From positions 38,812,001 through 38,876,000 of the forward strand of contig OZ024751.1 of NCBI GenBank assembly GCA_964016885.1: DNA of 64,000 nucleotides, in the 5' to 3' direction. This document shows positions 7,424 through 62,556 of the stretch, piece after piece. This DNA comes from Eledone cirrhosa. Its lineage: Eukaryota. Position numbers and translations under genes: made by a program. How positions within the stretch are numbered: position 1 is the first letter of the stretch; each line of letters starts with the position of its first letter. Below the pieces are notes generated by a model. It was not told the DNA's origin and did no database searches. It was given only the letters and a program-made list of their open reading frames with translations.

Positions 7424-7425
<2 letters not shown>

Positions 7426-7532
7426 CGAAGGAAATGTGGTAAGGAACCAGGTGGACCATAACGCACCAAAGTACTCAATACCCAGAATTAGCCGTCGAAA
7501 CGGCTTGAGCTCAGCCGTCGGGGTCTTACTGG

Positions 7533-7535
<3 letters not shown>
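7424..7535 (-). mobile_element. Fold-back PLE-derived element, family 1, copy B (internally deleted)
   Basis: Distal long arm (AACGAAGG...CAATAC) is fused to the short arm (CCAGAATTAGCCGTCGAAAC...GGTTC); TA tracts on both sides. Confidence 0.85.
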
Positions 7536-7592
<57 letters not shown>

Positions 7593-9009: not shown

Positions 9010-9223
9010 ATGAATTGGCTGAATTGGTAGAGCGTCGCACAACATGCTTAGCAGCATAGAGTTACGTCCCTTTCCATTCTGAGTTAAAACTCCGCCGACG
9101 TTAGCTTTTCCTTTCATCAGTAAGAGGCCGATAGAATAAAGAACCAGTAATGCACTGGGGTCGATTTAATCGACTTACAATACATAATTTTTGGCCTTGT
9201 GCCTATTTCGGAAACCATTATTA
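9010..9223 (+). mobile_element. Nin-domain-like tRNA SINE
   Basis: A box TGGCTGAATTGG, degenerate B box GAGTTAAAACTCC, CCTTTCATC...GATAGAATAAAGAACCAGT core, GGCCTTGTGCC...(ATT)n tail. Confidence 0.8.
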
Positions 9224-9225
9224 TA

Positions 9226-9401
9226 GGGCGGTGGATTGGCAGTATCGGATTGCAGCATAGAGTTACGTCCCTTTACAGTTTGAGTTCAAATCCCGCCCAG
9301 GTTCACTTTGCCTTTCATCCTTACGGGGTCGATAAAATAAAGTACCAGTAATACACTGAGATAATTGCTGGCCTTGTTCCAAAAGTAGAAACCATTATTA
9401 C
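9226..9401 (+). mobile_element. Nin-domain-like tRNA SINE, same subfamily as 1402-1930
   Basis: TGGCAGTATCGG, GAGTTCAAATCCC, GCCTTTCATCCTTACGGGGTCGATAAAATAAAGTACCAGT; directly downstream of the previous SINE. Confidence 0.85.
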
Positions 9402-15290: not shown

Positions 15291-15658
15291 CTAAAACTCG
15301 TTTTACAGATTGATCAACAGTGTCTCTGCGCCTTTGCCTAAAATATTGATCGCAAATCAAGCCACATATTTAACAGCAGCAATTAATTTACGATCCCGTA
15401 GATTGTCATTCTATTTGATTAGCTTTCTAATCACAGCAGAACGCCGCAACTAATGACAACCAAACCATATATATATTGTTATACTTTGGGAGGGTCATGT
15501 TGCCAATAAGAAACACACGCACCAGTTGCTTTCACTTCAATTTATTATATATTTATAAATTTATAAATTTACAAATCTATAAACCTATAAATTTCTGGTT
15601 GGTTGGTTGGTTCCACAACCAGATAGTTGTTTATATATAGTCATAGTCCTTTTCGTCA

Positions 15659-15757
15659 ATGTTTAGGCAAATTACAGAGGCAGTAAGCATAAAATAATTA
15701 CAACCAAAATTAAATAGAAAATATGAGTGGAACAGCAACATCACAACTTACAATTAA
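15659..15757 (+). pseudogene. C-terminal remnant of a PLE GIY-YIG endonuclease
   Basis: Translates MFRQITEAVSIK*LQPKLNRKYEWNSNITTYN*, matching the R..xEA..I...P.LN motif that carries the conserved Glu and Asn of GIY-YIG domains; one internal stop. Confidence 0.75.
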
Positions 15758-15965
15758 GGACAAAATGAAAACACACACAGGACAAAATGAAAACACACAC
15801 ACACACATAGAACAAACAACTTACAATTAAGGACAAAATGAAAACACACACAGGACAAAATGAAAACACACACACACACATAGAACAAACAACTTACAAT
15901 TAAGGACAAAATGAAAACACACACAGGACAAAATGAAAACACACACACACATAGAACAAACAACC
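15744..15965 (+). repeat. Three-copy tandem repeat (about 72 bp) at the PLE ORF end / 3' UTR
   Basis: CAACTTACAATTAAGGACAAAATGAAAACACACACAGGACAAAATGAAAAC(AC)nATAGAACAAA repeated three times. Confidence 0.9.
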
Positions 15966-16137
15966 AACCAACAATAAATAAATAAATAAATAAATAAACA
16001 AATAGATAAATGAACACAAACACACACAGACACCCGGATGTGGCGCATGCGCAAACTGAGCACACAACACGCACACAGAAACAAAATGGCGTAGGATAGA
16101 AGAAAGGAAAGGCACAGAAACAAAGAAAGGAATCCCC

Positions 16138-16182
16138 AGTCACTGAAGAGGTCACAGAGTGTGTGACGAAAGGACTATGACT
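16138..16182 (+). ncRNA. Minimal type I hammerhead ribozyme (complete core)
   Basis: AGTCA-CTGAAGA-g-GTCACA(gagtg)TGTGAC-GAAA-ggac-TA-TGACT: 5-bp stem I, CUGANGA, 6-bp stem II, 1-bp stem III; predicted cleavage after A16177. Confidence 0.85.
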
Positions 16183-16639
16183 ATATATAAACAACTATCT
16201 GGTTGTGGAACCAACCAACCAACCAGAAATTTATAGGTTTATAGATTTGTAAATTTATAAATTTATAAATATATAATAAATTGAAGTGAAACAACTGGTG
16301 CGTGTGTTTCTTATTGGCAACATGACCCTCCCAAAGTATAACAATATCGGTTTCAACACACGATTTCAGATAAAGAATCTTGCTAAACAAATTCAGAAAC
16401 GAAATATATATATATATAAATATTTATTTATATGTTTATATGTGTGTATGTATATATATATAAAGAGAAAGGAAGAGAGAGTAATAGAAAAAATAGAGAG
16501 AGATAAGTGTGCACATGTATGTATGAAGATATCTATCTGTATATATATATATATATATGTGGGGGGGGGTATGTGGGTGTGAGTGTGTATGTGTGTGTTG
16601 TGTGTGTGTATATATTTATATATGCACTTATTTGTGTGC

Positions 16640-19769: not shown

Positions 19770-19950
19770 TGCATTATTTGTTCTGGCTCTTTACATTCTA
19801 ATTTCCAAGCCCGCCGTGGGTAACTTTGTCTTTCATCCTTACGGCCTCGATAAAATAAAGAACCTGTAACGAACTGACGTCGATGTAATCGACTTCCCCC
19901 TCGCCCCAATTTGTTGGCCATGTGTCTAGGTTAGAAACCACTTTTATTAA
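19770..19950 (+). mobile_element. Decayed Nin-like SINE
   Basis: TTTCATCCTTACGGCCTCGATAAAATAAAG...GTCGATGTAATCGAC...TTAGAAACC. Confidence 0.7.
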
Positions 19951-21701: not shown

Positions 21702-21747
<46 letters not shown>

Positions 21748-21749
<2 letters not shown>

Positions 21750-21932
21750 AACCAGTAAGACCCCGACAGCTGAGCTCAAGCCGTTTCGACGGCTAATTCC
21801 AGAATTAGCCGTCGAAACGGCTTGAGCTCAGCTGTCGGGGACTTACTGGTTCCTATTACCCACTCTACTACCTCAAGTATTGAGTACTTTGGTGCGTTAT
21901 GGTCCACCTGGTTCCTTACCACATTTCCTTCG

Positions 21933-21934
<2 letters not shown>
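21748..21934 (+). mobile_element. Fold-back PLE-derived element, family 1, copy C
   Basis: Palindrome centred near 21800; GAAA at 21814-21817, stem III around the TGAGCTCA palindrome, GTC at 21834-21836; TA flanks. Confidence 0.9.
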
Positions 21935-22020
<86 letters not shown>

Positions 22021-22199: not shown

Positions 22200-22640
22200 T
22201 ATTAATAATGAGTTCAAAACTCGGGCAGTCCTTTACAATGAACTAGCTCAAAGAAAGAAGTATTTCTGAGCCGTGTAATACAAGTTAATATAAATTAATA
22301 TATTTGATAAACACAAATACCAACATATCCGTGTTTGTATTGTAAATGACTAAGTTAGCTAGATTGAAAAATACTAATTATAATAATACAGTTTGCCTGT
22401 CTCGATTTAAAATAATCTACGGAACAGGTTTGATTTTGAAATTTAAATGTGTCCAAGCACCACGGCCATATGCCTATATGCTTTGTTTTTATTGATTTAT
22501 TATTTTAAATCGAGACAGGCAAACTGTATTATTATAATTAGTATTTTAGTATTTTTCAATCTAGCTAACTGAGTCATTTACAATACAAACACGGATATGT
22601 TGGTATTTGTGTTTATCAAATATATTAATTTATATTAACT

Positions 22641-22645
<5 letters not shown>
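22200..22645 (-). mobile_element. Asymmetric inverted-repeat element, family 3 (probable PLE relic)
   Basis: About 140 bp arms (22278-22416 and 22499-22645), 82 bp spacer, extension on one side only, TA flanks; GAGA-CAG(gcaaa)CTG-TA resembles a mutated HHR 3' half. Confidence 0.7.
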
Positions 22646-22699: not shown

Positions 22700-23256
<557 letters not shown>

Positions 23257-31582: not shown

Positions 31583-31584
<2 letters not shown>

Positions 31585-31726
31585 CGAAGGAAATGTGGTA
31601 AGGAACCAGGTGGACCATAACGCACCAAAGTACTCAATACTTGAGGTAGTAGAGTGGGTAATAGGAACCAGTAGGACTCCGACAGCTGAGCTCAAGCCGT
31701 TTTGACGGCTAATTCTGGACGCAGTT

Positions 31727-31729
<3 letters not shown>
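31583..31729 (-). mobile_element. Fold-back PLE-derived element, family 1, copy D (short arm mostly deleted)
   Basis: Full long arm to AATTCTGGAC, then only GTTCCT of the short arm; TA flanks. Confidence 0.85.
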
Positions 31730-31779
<50 letters not shown>

Positions 31780-32830: not shown

Positions 32831-32936
<106 letters not shown>

Positions 32937-32973
32937 ATAAGAAGAAATAAAAGATGGTTAAAAAAGTTCCATG

Positions 32974-33045
32974 TATTTTATTATGCGCATTTCAAAAACA
33001 AATATCATCCAGGGACGATATTTGCGTTCTCATCAGAATAAAATA
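32974..33045 (-). ncRNA. Type I hammerhead ribozyme with long stem II (near complete)
   Basis: Minus strand: TATTTTAT-t-CTGATGA-[17-bp imperfect hairpin GAACGCAAATATCGTCC/GGATGATATTTGTTTTT]-GAAA-TGCGCA-TA-ATAAAATA; about 35 nt from a (TA)n tract. Confidence 0.7.
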
Positions 33046-33254
33046 GGGAAACATGATATGAAGCCTAAAAAACACTTGTGAGCAAGGAAGTGTCCAGTCA
33101 ATATAGGATAAATAAATTTAAAAGGATATAGAAGTTTGGAAAAAAGGAAGGAAGGGGAAAAAAAGGAAGGAAGAGGAGAAAAGGGAAAAAGAAAAAAAGG
33201 AAAAAGAAAGAGAGAAAACCAGAGTAAGAGTATAAGAAGGAAGGATGAGAGACA

Positions 33255-36332: not shown

Positions 36333-36380
<48 letters not shown>

Positions 36381-36384
<4 letters not shown>

Positions 36385-36554
36385 TATGACCCTGACGGCA
36401 GAGCTCAAGTCGTCTCGACGGATATTTCTGGACTAAATTAGAATATTTAGTCTGGTGTCGGGGTCATACTTTTCCTATTACCCACTCTATTAGCCCAAGT
36501 ATTGAGTATTCTGGTGCGTTATGGTCCATCTGGTTCTTTACTACAACTCCTTCG

Positions 36555-36556
<2 letters not shown>
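36381..36556 (+). mobile_element. Fold-back PLE-derived element, family 1, copy E (diverged, longer hairpin tip)
   Basis: Homologous long arm; centre GACTAAAT-tagaat-ATTTAGTC; the GAAA segment of the long arm is deleted; TA flanks. Confidence 0.8.
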
Positions 36557-46889: not shown

Positions 46890-47017
46890 TAATAAATGGA
46901 AACTATATTTAAAAAAAACATATTTATTCTATTATATATATTTCAAGGGAACGAAAACTTTGGTACGCACTCATCAGATAAAATACAAAGTTTGTTTTAT
47001 AAATAGTGACATGCCCA
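46890..47017 (-). mobile_element. HHR-bearing PLE-like relic, family 6, copy A
   Basis: Homologous to 55003-55140; minus strand ATTTTAT-CTGATGA-(decayed stem II)-GAAA-TATA-TA. Confidence 0.55.
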
Positions 47018-48600: not shown

Positions 48601-50213
48601 GGGGTAGTGGGTCCAAATCACGTGGCACAGAAAGTTAATATGTATTTTTGTTTACGGTTATTTGGAGGGAGGGGGGATGTTTGAAATCAGTTACAACTTT
48701 GGTCGTAAATATTCCGTCAAGAATATTCACAATATGAAATGAACGAATGATTTACGGTAAATGTGTATGTGAGTATATATTAGCTAAAGAAAAACACTTA
48801 TGCAATATATATTCTTAAAAACCTAATTTTAAGAATAATTATAAATGAATTAAATAAATATTTGTTTCTTATTTTTTCCAAATTACAATTGATTGTAATG
48901 TATTCATGATTAGGAAGATATTAATTTAAACAATTAGTTGTGAAACTTGATAGGATTACCCATGTTGCACATTAATCTGTTGTATAGTCCTTCAAATAAA
49001 GTCGACTACTCTTATAGAGTTTGATGTCCAATATATCATTTTAACTGTTTACCCCATATGCTGGAGAGCTACTTCTCTGCTGAAATCTAATCAGGGGAGG
49101 CAAATGCTTTATCATTAATTGTCACCACAAGAGCTCAACAATTATTTACAGTTTCTCACTTGACAACATAACGTAATCGCAAAACAATAGATTATAATTG
49201 TTGCATTTCCTGAAGACAAAAATAATACGAAATTATGTATATGATATTCAATGGTTTTAGAGGAGAACAACATCCCCTCACCGTTATTTAATACATTAAT
49301 TTTAGTGGACAGCCTTAATTAATACAACAATCAACAATTGAATTGTTGGAGCTTCAATAAATTACAACTAAGTTAAATGGAATAGGGAACGAAAATTATA
49401 AAACACATTTGGAAAACACATTTGGAAAAGTTTAAGAAACAAATATGTCTTTATACAGATTTTATATCAATGTTAATTAATGTTAGCGATATTTCTACGA
49501 GGATTTTTGGATGAGGGAAAATAATTTCTTTGTAGATTAAATAAATTACAATTATTTTAATACACTTTAATATTGTTACTCAATTTAATTGCAAAATTAA
49601 AAGGTGTATTATAGCATACATATACTTGTCCATTAGTGTTGGTGGCCCTTACTTAAGAACAAGAAAATGAAAACAATTCATTCGCAGAATTATTTTACTC
49701 TATATTCTAGAGATAGCTGCATATTTGGCAACGAAGGACTGTATTATGATGGAAATGACCACATGCAACAACGGAGATGACCTTTCGATCAAAATACGTA
49801 TGTCAAATGCTAACAGCAGATAGAAGAAAAAGGGAATTATGCAGAATATGTCATATATATATATATATATATGTAGATAAATCTACCAAGAGTTTACGGT
49901 AGTGTCCAATCCGTATGAAGAACTCAATGTAATCCGGATATCATGGAAAGAAGAGATGCAATGAAAAATCACTTTCGGTGAAAGATAAACGGAATACAGA
50001 GTCAAGATAAAATATTTAAAAAATAATGAATAAAACAATGAAACAGTTCCTTATATTAAACAAAAAAAGTTCATTATTTAACGATCGTTTCTAGGATATA
50101 TATGTGTTAGAATTGGCATGCATATTCAACAGATCTATGTACAAAATTATACAAAATTATACAAACTATCAAAATTAAATATACATACCAACACATATAT
50201 ATGCCGTCTTCAG

Positions 50214-50300
<87 letters not shown>

Positions 50301-50303
<3 letters not shown>

Positions 50304-50353
50304 CATCATATTCTGCCTAATTCCCTTTTTCTTCTATCTGCTGTTGGCATTTG

Positions 50354-50395
<42 letters not shown>

Positions 50396-50445
50396 CATCA
50401 TATTCTGCCTAATTCCCTTTTTCTTCTATCTGCTGTTGGCATTTG

Positions 50446-50456
<11 letters not shown>
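50301..50456 (+). repeat. Exact direct duplication of about 56 bp separated by (TA)n
   Basis: TGACATCATATTCTGCC...GGCATTTGACACAC at 50301 and 50393. Confidence 0.9.
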
Positions 50457-50521
<65 letters not shown>

Positions 50522-53848: not shown

Positions 53849-54200
53849 TTAGAAAGTGAGGTTTATTTTACAAAATGAAAAATAACCGGTGTCCTAGACG
53901 AGTGAAAGTATAAAAAAAAAAGATGAAATCGAAAATGCAACTGGAGTCGTATTTTTTTTTTAAATATATATATTTATTTGGTTCCTTTACCGGTTTCGCA
54001 GTTCTTCTGCTTTTCAAAAGTAGAGTTGAGATGGAGGGTCTGTGGTTTTTCTCACATCTGTGAGAAAAACCATAGACCCTCCATCTCATCTCTACTTTTG
54101 AAAAGCAGAAGAACTGCGAAACCGGTAAAGGAACCAAATAAATATATATATTTTTTTAAAAAGTAAGACTCCAGTTGCATTTTCGATTTCATCTTTTTTT

Positions 54201-54204
<4 letters not shown>
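53849..54204 (-). mobile_element. Fold-back PLE-derived element, family 2, copy B
   Basis: Same ends and architecture as 22700-23058; 2-nt loop TC at 54057-54058. Confidence 0.9.
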
Positions 54205-54261
<57 letters not shown>

Positions 54262-55002: not shown

Positions 55003-55140
55003 TAACAAATGGAAACTATATTTATAAAACCATATTTATTTCATTTTACATATTTCAAGGACACCAAGTTAAATTATGGTGTGCTTTCATCAGATAAAAT
55101 ATAATATAGAGCAGTTTTATAAATAAATATTGACATACCC
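55003..55140 (-). mobile_element. HHR-bearing PLE-like relic, family 6, copy B
   Basis: Minus strand ATTTTAT-CTGATGA-AAGCACACCA...TGGTGTCCTT-GAAA-TATG-TA; stem II 9/10 paired, stem I decayed; TA tract downstream. Confidence 0.6.
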
Positions 55141-60352: not shown

Positions 60353-62215
60353 ACACATATATTTGATTGATTTTTGTCTCAACTGTCCGTTCTGTTATCA
60401 CGAGACAATATTAAAATAAGGAAATGATAACACTTACTGAAACAAGCTGGCAAAGTCAAGGGTTTCCTTTAGGTTCTCCATATTTTTCTTCGTTTGTAAC
60501 CTGCTATTTAGATTTAGCGTACGTGGTCTGAATTTATTCAACGTATCATACAATGTGTTGCAATATACATATATTTATATCGTTATATGGCATAAATGCA
60601 TTTGAACATATCATTTCAGAGTAGATTGTATACGCGCATCGTTATATAAGAATATAAATAGAGTTACCTGCATTGTTACATGATACATAGCGACATTTAA
60701 TTTCAAATCTGTATAGTACCAACGTGGCATAGTAAATATATATATATATAATAGATGTTATATAGACCTTCCATTCAATGTATATATATATATATACTAA
60801 TAATAATAATTATTATTATTATTAGTAGTAGTATATATATATATAATGTGTGTGAGTAGTATATACATGCATTATTATATACATATATTCTCACAACAAT
60901 CAGTTCCAATTAATCTTACAAAATAAAGTGTAAATTTATTTTTCATTCTATTCTGTTTCAAAGATGACAACTTTAATTCCAAATTAATTTTAATTACATT
61001 CAAAAACCCCCACTTTACATGACATAATACTATAATTTAATCTATTGTTTCATACAAAAATTACGCTTATCAATTTCTATTTTTTGTTAATTAGCTCAAT
61101 TAAACACATAAAGAAACATAAAATATTATATTACATTTATACAGAATTCATAATTTAGACGTATAAATCAAACTTTTATAACCAGTTATAATGTTCATAC
61201 CAAAAGCCTGTAAATTGTTAACGGTTGTGATATTTGAGATAATGAATAAACGTTCAAGGAATGGTAGTTGTCGTCGTCAAGATTGTGAAACTATGTCTTG
61301 CAAAATTACGATTTATCCTCCGTCCATGTCGACGACGAGCTATCAATTATCCGATCAGCTAAACGTCCAACTCATGAAATAACATGTAAATGTTTGAATA
61401 TTTCAGAGATACATGTCTCTTTTTTGTGTTATTCTGAAGAAGATTGTCAGTGGCATAATATTTGATGAGTCTGGACATGTAAATCACTGGTATTATTCCC
61501 AAGACAAACTCTCAACACAGTTTAACATCGAACTAATTTATCTCTTAAGTATAATAAGAAAGTATCAATGGGACAGATCAATTCTCATGACACCATGCAT
61601 TTTGATCGAAGTTGACGTCATAGTTAGGAGGCGAATGTTTATCGATTAAACCATGCCTGGATTTATTTGCATAACAATTGCCTCTTATTAAATTACAGCA
61701 GATAAATTCTGCACAAACTAACATGTTTAACTACATTCCAACGCGAACATAAAAAATGCAGATATCTATACAGCAGTAACATAATAACCCAATACTTTAT
61801 ATACACATAAACAATTTCGTTTTATATTCTAACTTTTACACATTTAATACCCATTATTTAATACCCATCTCATTTTATTCTATTTCCCCTTAAAGTGGAA
61901 TTCTACAAACAATTAATTTAGTAATACAATTAGAAGGACTTTGTCCCGGTTTATAAATCAATAAATATATGGAAAAGATATAAGTATGAATTTATGGTGG
62001 AGTCAGAAAGATCCTTATTGCAAGTTTTGTCTTACATATCATTTTCATAGTTTATATTTTCTATTTTCTATTGAATAAGTATTTCACAAAGAATTAATGA
62101 TTACATTTGAATAAATGCCTTTCTATAAAAACAAAATATCATATCAAAGTTCACATCTACAGTTATATTTAAGTGTAGTAAAGGCAGCACTGGCAAATGG
62201 AATGCATATATATAT

Positions 62216-62410
62216 AACGAAGGAATTGTGGTAAGGAACCAGATGGACCATACGCACCAAAGTACTCAATACTTAGGGTAGTAGAGTAGGTAATGGGAAC
62301 AAGTATGGACCCCGAGGGCAGAGCCCAAGCCGTTTCGACGACTAATTCTGGAGTCCAGAATTAGCCGTCCAAACGGCTTGAGCTCTGCCGTCGGGGTCAT
62401 ACTTGTTCCT
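62216..62410 (-). mobile_element. Fold-back PLE-derived element, family 1, copy F
   Basis: Long arm 62216-62352, centre CTGGA-G-TCCAG, short arm ending GTTCCT-(AT)n. Confidence 0.85.
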
Positions 62411-62556
62411 ATATATATATATATATAGTAAGGTGCATTATTGGTTGTGGAAAATGGTCCAATAACTTTATGTTAGCAATATTAAGTTCCCCACGCTTTT
62501 GTATATCTCCAATTCCATTCGAGGGAACAGCTAGATGATGTAAAACGGAGTATAAG

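Follow-up and report, generated by a model that had tools for sequence, protein, structure and literature searches.

The locus and its setting

The 64,000-nt stretch of Eledone cirrhosa DNA analysed here (the window) is AT-rich (22-39% GC) and rich in microsatellites (144 entries). At 32974-33045 its minus strand carries a hammerhead motif of type I, in which every position of the core (CUGANGA ... GAAA ... UH) is present and three stems surround that core, with stem I open-ended. Read along the minus strand, the motif begins with the 8-nt 5' strand of stem I (33038-33045), followed by one extra T (33037) between stem I and the core, the core segment CUGAUGA (C3 to A9; 33030-33036), the 5' arm of stem II (33014-33029; 16 positions, with a C.U mismatch at position 4), loop II (33010-33013), the 3' arm of stem II (32994-33009) and the second core segment GAAA (G12-A13-A14-A15.1; 32990-32993). 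The palindromic stem III, the self-complementary 8-mer AUGCGCAU, occupies 32990-32983, the predicted cleavage site (from hammerhead numbering) lies after A17 (32982), that is, between 32982 and 32981, and the 3' strand of stem I (32974-32981) closes the motif, all eight of its letters pairing with 33038-33045 once the extra T is skipped. A further 34 nt (32940-32973) separate the ribozyme from a (TA)n array at 32831-32939, which is the likely insertion target, and the 5' part of the repeat copy that contains the motif extends over 33046-33125 on the same strand. Most of this was anticipated in the original prediction, made from the letters of the window: a near-complete minus-strand hammerhead with an 8-bp stem I interrupted by one extra T and a palindromic stem III, about 35 nt from (TA)n. 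What it said about stem II has fared less uniformly, as described below.

A match this complete is not to be expected by chance. A relaxed hammerhead descriptor finds four matches in the window, where a shuffle yields 0.3 on average; when stem II is held to at least 12 and stem I to at least 7 positions, none of the 60 shuffles (block-wise and approximately dinucleotide-preserving) yields a match. The fold is also more stable on the minus strand (z = -3.46) than on the plus strand (z = -1.64). The motif has nevertheless escaped the standard models: there is no Rfam hammerhead at 32974-33045 among the 150 listed of 244 matches, and a local Rfam scan at E<=10 returns only a snoRNA there (E=0.13). 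The long stem II and minimal stem III are the likely cause of the miss. The locus holds the core and stems of a real type I hammerhead motif.

Two other repeats of the window may be recorded here. A dispersed family with internal 117-nt tandem units is found at 1407-1938, 9011-9399 and 19786-19947; we take it to be SINE-like. A short 60-nt unit is inserted in (TA)n at 49798-49885 and 50269-50451, standing twice in tandem at 50270-50485, and may be the 3' tip of a further element that targets (TA)n.

A multi-copy repeat with a fixed 3' end

Four of eight sequencing runs, X1 (contigs) and X6 (RAD-seq reads), both of organism A, together with X4 and X5, were aligned on 32940-33245 at 80% identity or more, a cut-off that favours copies resembling the query. 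The yield is 1,729 contigs from X1, which is possibly the source of the window and therefore not independent of it, and 3,218 reads from X6. The motif is thus multi-copy. Depth (which in X1 contigs does not equal copy number) begins at about 32948-32951, and the loose ends of X1 contigs there continue into TA-rich letters, although one large loose-end group in X6 has a flank that is not TA. On the other side, depth is lost stepwise, at about 33082 and 33125. A fixed 3' end with variable 5' ends is the pattern that 5'-truncated copies leave. No ORF lies upstream of the copy, and by eye none of the 105 listed ORFs of the window is reverse-transcriptase-like. A small share of X4 and X5 matches the region, and then only at an A/G-rich tract (33137-33177), giving no sign of expression or of relatives.

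Loop II, the extra T and the state of this copy

By letters, stem II (33029-33013 against 32994-33010) comprises 17 positions, 13 of them Watson-Crick pairs, three G.U and one, at position 4, the C.U mismatch. The innermost, 17th pair has a probability of 0.00 in the RNA fold; stem II therefore amounts to 15 pairs and the mismatch, closed by a loop of 4 nt. The family agrees. Most copies have another letter at 33010 (110,882 of 126,525 in summed X1 depth, and 684 of 911 X6 reads), and 33011 and 33016 likewise differ in most aligned copies, so that the tip pair is absent and the family loop is 4 nt. The apparent C-G pair with its 2-nt loop is a minority allele, and the stem of 17 bp closed by 2 nt that had been read at this locus describes neither the common form nor the predicted RNA fold of this copy.

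The extra T is not a constant feature either. It is missing in 403 of 670 X6 reads; in X1, seven contigs lack it, and these account for only 11% of the summed depth. Three groups of loose ends (24 and 15 contigs, and 201 reads) run through without it, as do both relatives in the window, at 46977 and 55093. In the RNA fold of the 32974-33045 copy, the predicted partner of the extra U is the cleavage nucleotide A17 (probability 0.86), and unblocking the core costs about 3 kcal/mol. This particular copy is therefore likely to be impaired as a ribozyme.

Long stem II as a family trait

Whether the long stem is native to its family or a quirk of one copy can be asked of the substitutions. Ten were classified, seven from the table of substitutions (40 of 56 listed) and three, by eye, from the consensus of loose ends; three loop positions and 32988 were left out. 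All nine that fall at paired positions keep the pair on the minus-strand RNA. Five of these hit Watson-Crick pairs, and each gives G.U on the minus strand where it would break the pair on the plus strand; the chance of such strand-specific tolerance in five of five is about 1 in 32 if relatedness and CpG effects are disregarded. In the tenth, the C.U mismatch becomes U.U. The only change within CUGAUGA among the 40 of 56 substitutions listed is at 33032, which is N7, the free position. A diverged subfamily, which appears as a loose end at 33009 (29 X1 contigs and 254 X6 reads), pairs by eye over 16 stem II positions, with the C.U mismatch and a 4-nt loop.

The window also holds two distant relatives, both on the minus strand. 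The one at 55036-55101 (referred to as 55093) keeps stem I and the core but has lost U16.1, and its stem II, closed by a loop of 10 nt, spans 10 positions of which the fourth is C.C; in the other, at 46924-46985 (46977), stem II has decayed, and position 4 is again C.C. GAAA is unchanged in all three copies. The spacer between CUGAUGA and GAAA, 36 nt at 32974-33045, is 26 nt at 46977 and 30 nt at 55093, and the distances to the microsatellite are 34, 44 and 40 nt, respectively. Because MAFFT misplaces the stem II gap when the three are aligned, the count of pairs starts instead at the stem's base. Counted in this way, positions 3, 8 and 9 differ on both sides between 32974-33045 and 55093 (A-U as against G-C or C-G). 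Matches between the two families are of 16-17 nt at E 0.06-0.2, and their probable kinship rests on these short matches together with the shared layout. Position 4 of stem II is a pyrimidine mismatch in all three in-window copies; the same mismatch (33026/32997) is also seen in the aligned subfamily, and it lies about where loop 2 begins in a canonical stem of 4 bp.

The prediction that the long stem II is native thus holds, and the long stem is a trait of the family rather than a quirk of the 32974-33045 copy. The covariation sought among homologues is there in part: in stem II, pairs are kept within the family and three two-sided changes separate it from 55093, but stem III provides a counter-example, since the substitution at 32988 breaks its palindrome. 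That change is carried by 1,181 X6 reads and no X1 contig, and it probably represents one RAD locus, because 1,140 molecules end at 32991.

Stem III, dimers and a proposed mechanism

Closing stem III within one molecule costs energy, and the stem is stable only between two molecules, where the duplex is calculated at -10.5 kcal/mol. The palindrome is therefore likely to pair between two RNA copies. There is precedent for this arrangement: in the available text of a study of metazoan Penelope hammerheads (PMC4209133), motifs with a palindromic helix III are thought to work as dimers in Penelope-like elements, and cleavage is low with dimeric constructs and absent with monomers.

We favour the following reading, at a probability of roughly 0.7. 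The locus is a type I hammerhead motif whose stem II spans 16 positions, and it marks the 3' end of a multi-copy repeat lying next to (TA)n. This repeat copy is likely what 5' truncation has left of a Penelope-like element, whose RNA would cut itself by pairing of stem III between two copies. [quoted passage not shown] The ribozyme, acting as a dimer, would process a tandem precursor RNA, probably cutting at the predicted site after A17 once the palindromic stems III of two copies have paired. The one Penelope-like element that has been reconstituted in vitro, as far as the accessible account goes (PMC11167929), needed protein for cleavage, and its insertion did not need cleavage. The long stem II itself is likely to be an extension of the shorter stem (about 10 bp) that is seen in the sister family, and, as the base of stem II is all that the core requires, the added length was probably tolerated.

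Palindromic families and the question of fold-back

A further role for the long stem was contained in the original prediction, which saw in a long, tight-looped stem II the precursor of two palindromic families (its families 1 and 2, which we take to be the palindromic families A and B of the window). Family A is a palindrome with a tail of about 80 nt lying between (TA)n arrays, at 21745-21935 (palindrome 21745-21856) and in five further copies at 2484-2682, 62206-62412, 36380-36556, 31583-31730 and 7424-7536. By eye, its right arm resembles the 3' half of a hammerhead: stem III would have 6 bp and a loop that is itself palindromic, and a GUC triplet is present. Family B, at 22763-23060 and 53909-54207, has 148-bp arms and a 2-nt loop, with the same centre in both copies. 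The tails are one-sided in the cleanest copies (79 nt for family A, 63 nt for family B).

The proposal is that reverse transcription passes through the long stem II and that the end of the cDNA then snaps back at loop II, serving as primer for its second strand, so that the resulting perfect palindromes keep two GAAA halves and lose CUGAUGA; more broadly, some (TA)n-targeting Penelope-like elements would have evolved long stems II as fold-back primers, thereby founding palindromic, ribozyme-dead mobile families. Several features are what such a process would leave behind. The long stem II is, as shown above, native to the 32974-33045 family. Both palindromic families keep a hammerhead-like 3' half, and CUGAnGA is absent from all eight copies examined; in two copies of family A the centres lie 12 and 16 nt from G12 of GAAA, approximately the length of the 32974-33045 stem II. 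In X1, the 3' half is covered about four times as deeply as the part upstream of the core, and a loose-end group of 173 X6 reads breaks off 3 nt past loop II. Penelope elements are, moreover, already described as forming head-to-head palindromic junctions with a one-sided tail, and self-priming is the published explanation (PMC3846280, in the portion available).

Against this stands, first, the absence of shared sequence: the 32974-33045 element has no match to family A at E<=10, and its best match to family B is 16 nt at E=0.2. The family loop, at 4 nt, is not the tight one, and the likeness to the 1-2 nt loops at the centres of the palindromes falls away with it, as the 2-nt loop here is a minority allele and the junctions of family A vary among copies both in place and in loop size (2, 1, 5 and 6 nt) and so do not mark one fixed loop. 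The centre of family B is 59 nt from G12 of a GAAA-palindrome-UA hammerhead half. The letters that follow the 173-read break are not those of the inverted arm, and ordinary 5' truncation with divergence of the 5' arm would account for the drop in depth as well. No strand-switch joint at loop II appears in X1 contigs or X6 reads among the 22 of 115 loose-end groups listed (contigs collapse palindromes, and RAD reads sample few loci); the only opposite-strand joint among them, 33001/33105 in three X6 reads, lies away from the loop. None of the three copies of the 3'-half motif in the window is inverted. We consequently regard the founding of families A and B, or of any such families, by fold-back at long stems II as doubtful, and find the precursor role assigned to this stem unsupported. 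Were fold-back at loop II nevertheless real, it would be a sequence-encoded cause of the long-known inverted Penelope junctions.

Other inverted structures of the window deserve mention in their own right. At 15473-16400 two inverted copies, 99% identical over 186 nt, stand head to head with about 500 nt between them. The right copy contains a whole hammerhead-like motif at 16143 on the plus strand and continues for some way before (TA)n begins; the left one, which is inverted, ends inside the 3' arm of stem II, making this a second inversion point within a stem II. An imperfect inverted repeat (81% over 380 nt) lies by (TA)n at 22278-22645, directly upstream of family B.

Other readings

A type I hammerhead with a palindromic stem III at a locus devoid of coding sequence is also what one might expect of a stand-alone retrozyme, a short non-coding unit copied by way of a self-cleaved circular RNA, with no Penelope ORF involved, and animal retrozymes have been proposed to derive from Penelope-like pseudo-LTRs (bioRxiv 10.64898/2026.07.22.740005, as far as its available text goes). 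The animal non-LTR retrozymes described in the accessible parts of PMC7229834 and of that preprint are tandem repeats of 150-450 nt that are expressed as circles. The present motif shares with them the non-coding repeat and its type I hammerhead, but the copy at 32974-33045 is solitary: the microsatellite and tandem-repeat listing of the window places no tandem arrangement there, and no X1 or X6 record fits two places in 32940-33245. A 3' end fixed beside (TA)n, together with 5' ends that differ stepwise, also counts against a retrozyme, and X4 and X5, which match only the A/G-rich tract already referred to, give no evidence of its RNA. We consider a retrozyme improbable.

It is very unlikely indeed that the long stem is an accident at the DNA level, produced by local inverted duplication or by palindrome correction in a dead repeat that is not selected as RNA. 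In favour of this reading, the six additional pairs stand where the sister family has its loop of 10 nt, the plus strand folds into a hairpin too (z = -3.0), and no two-sided change within the family could be phased. Against it, only the minus strand tolerates the substitutions, and the single change in CUGAUGA among the 40 of 56 substitutions listed is at the free N7.

Two candidates were set aside. The 36-nt spacer had prompted a comparison with the 'HHR_half_core' of Naiad elements, which, in the available description, have no canonical hammerhead, the two halves of their core being separated by 35-50 nt that do not fold properly; the spacer here is fully paired, and an origin from Naiad was rejected. 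Six short motifs of the window have no match at cephalopod Naiad 3' ends among the matches listed, and the ends differ by eye. A search of other contigs gave no matches in viral contigs and, in metagenome contigs, two loci (L001 and its close homologue L002) whose motif match by eye has no stem II; they were dropped as chance. The L001 match lies within an ORF of 458 aa, presumably a glutamine synthetase.

Comparison with known hammerhead elements

The nearest known relatives in layout are the Hydra-clade Penelope-like elements, whose hammerheads, according to the accessible text and files S1/S2 of Craig et al. 2021 (PMC8557442; 24 families), are of type I, lie near the 3' end of the element and accompany a (TA)n target. 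Shared with the present family are the type I topology, a stem I that abuts the core, a short, near-palindromic stem III, the lack of a strict G10.1-C11.1 pair and the distance to the end of the element, which is 34, 40 and 44 nt in the window and 26-43 nt in 10 of the 24 families. Stem II sets them apart, with 15 pairs and a mismatch here and a listed 3-7 bp in those families. Among the matches listed for octopus hammerheads in a mostly open-access literature only PMC8557442 is relevant, and the octopus element Hydra-1_oBim differs in sequence by eye. The likeness to Hydra-type Penelope is one of hammerhead layout and target. Membership of that clade is read from a single ORF with a telomerase-like reverse transcriptase and a GIY-YIG endonuclease, and the 32974-33045 copy has no ORF. 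Pseudo-LTRs, tandem or inverted, are not seen at this copy; three X6 reads carry the opposite-strand joint 33001/33105.

Metazoan Penelope-like minimal hammerheads (Cervera and de la Pena 2014, PMC4209133, in the part available) occur as dispersed single motifs that are ascribed to truncated elements. The present motif is likewise solitary and dispersed, with a palindromic helix III. In contrast, its helix II is about twice as long as that of Schistosoma (7-8 bp, and already called 'larger than usual'), no nucleotide is unpaired from A9 to 10.1, and stem I has 8 bp rather than 4-5. Arkhipova et al. 2013 (PMC3846280, likewise in part) describe pseudo-LTRs paired in inverse orientation, with a palindrome at their junction and a tail on one side; families A and B fit that description, but the 32974-33045 motif itself is not inverted. 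The stem II of a spike-moss element has 9 bp.

Among the matches listed in a mostly open-access literature we found no Penelope hammerhead whose stem II is said to reach 16 bp (such cases may stand in the supplements of PMC4209133 and PMC3088659) and no description of a long stem II in genomic hammerheads, 'extended stem II' occurring only in an engineering paper; nor do Penelope elements and snap-back appear together there.

What the long stem means

The motif at 32974-33045 is a long-stem form of a known retroelement ribozyme, and what is new is the length of stem II. As far as the accessible tables go, it extends the range of stem II in retroelement hammerheads to about twice that of those tabulated (3-7 bp in the Hydra clade, 7-8 in Schistosoma, 9 in the spike-moss). 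The surprise is modest, since stem II lengths of natural hammerheads are already known to vary widely (PMC3088659, in the text available). That Rfam models miss the motif and that a core-only hammerhead screen allowed a spacer of 7-17 nt (PMC8557442, in its accessible part) together make it likely that long-stem motifs have been undercounted. One may speculate that the pyrimidine mismatch kept at position 4 of stem II is a candidate tertiary contact. Fold-backs at loop II, if they do occur, would bear on how Penelope elements come to form their inverted junctions.
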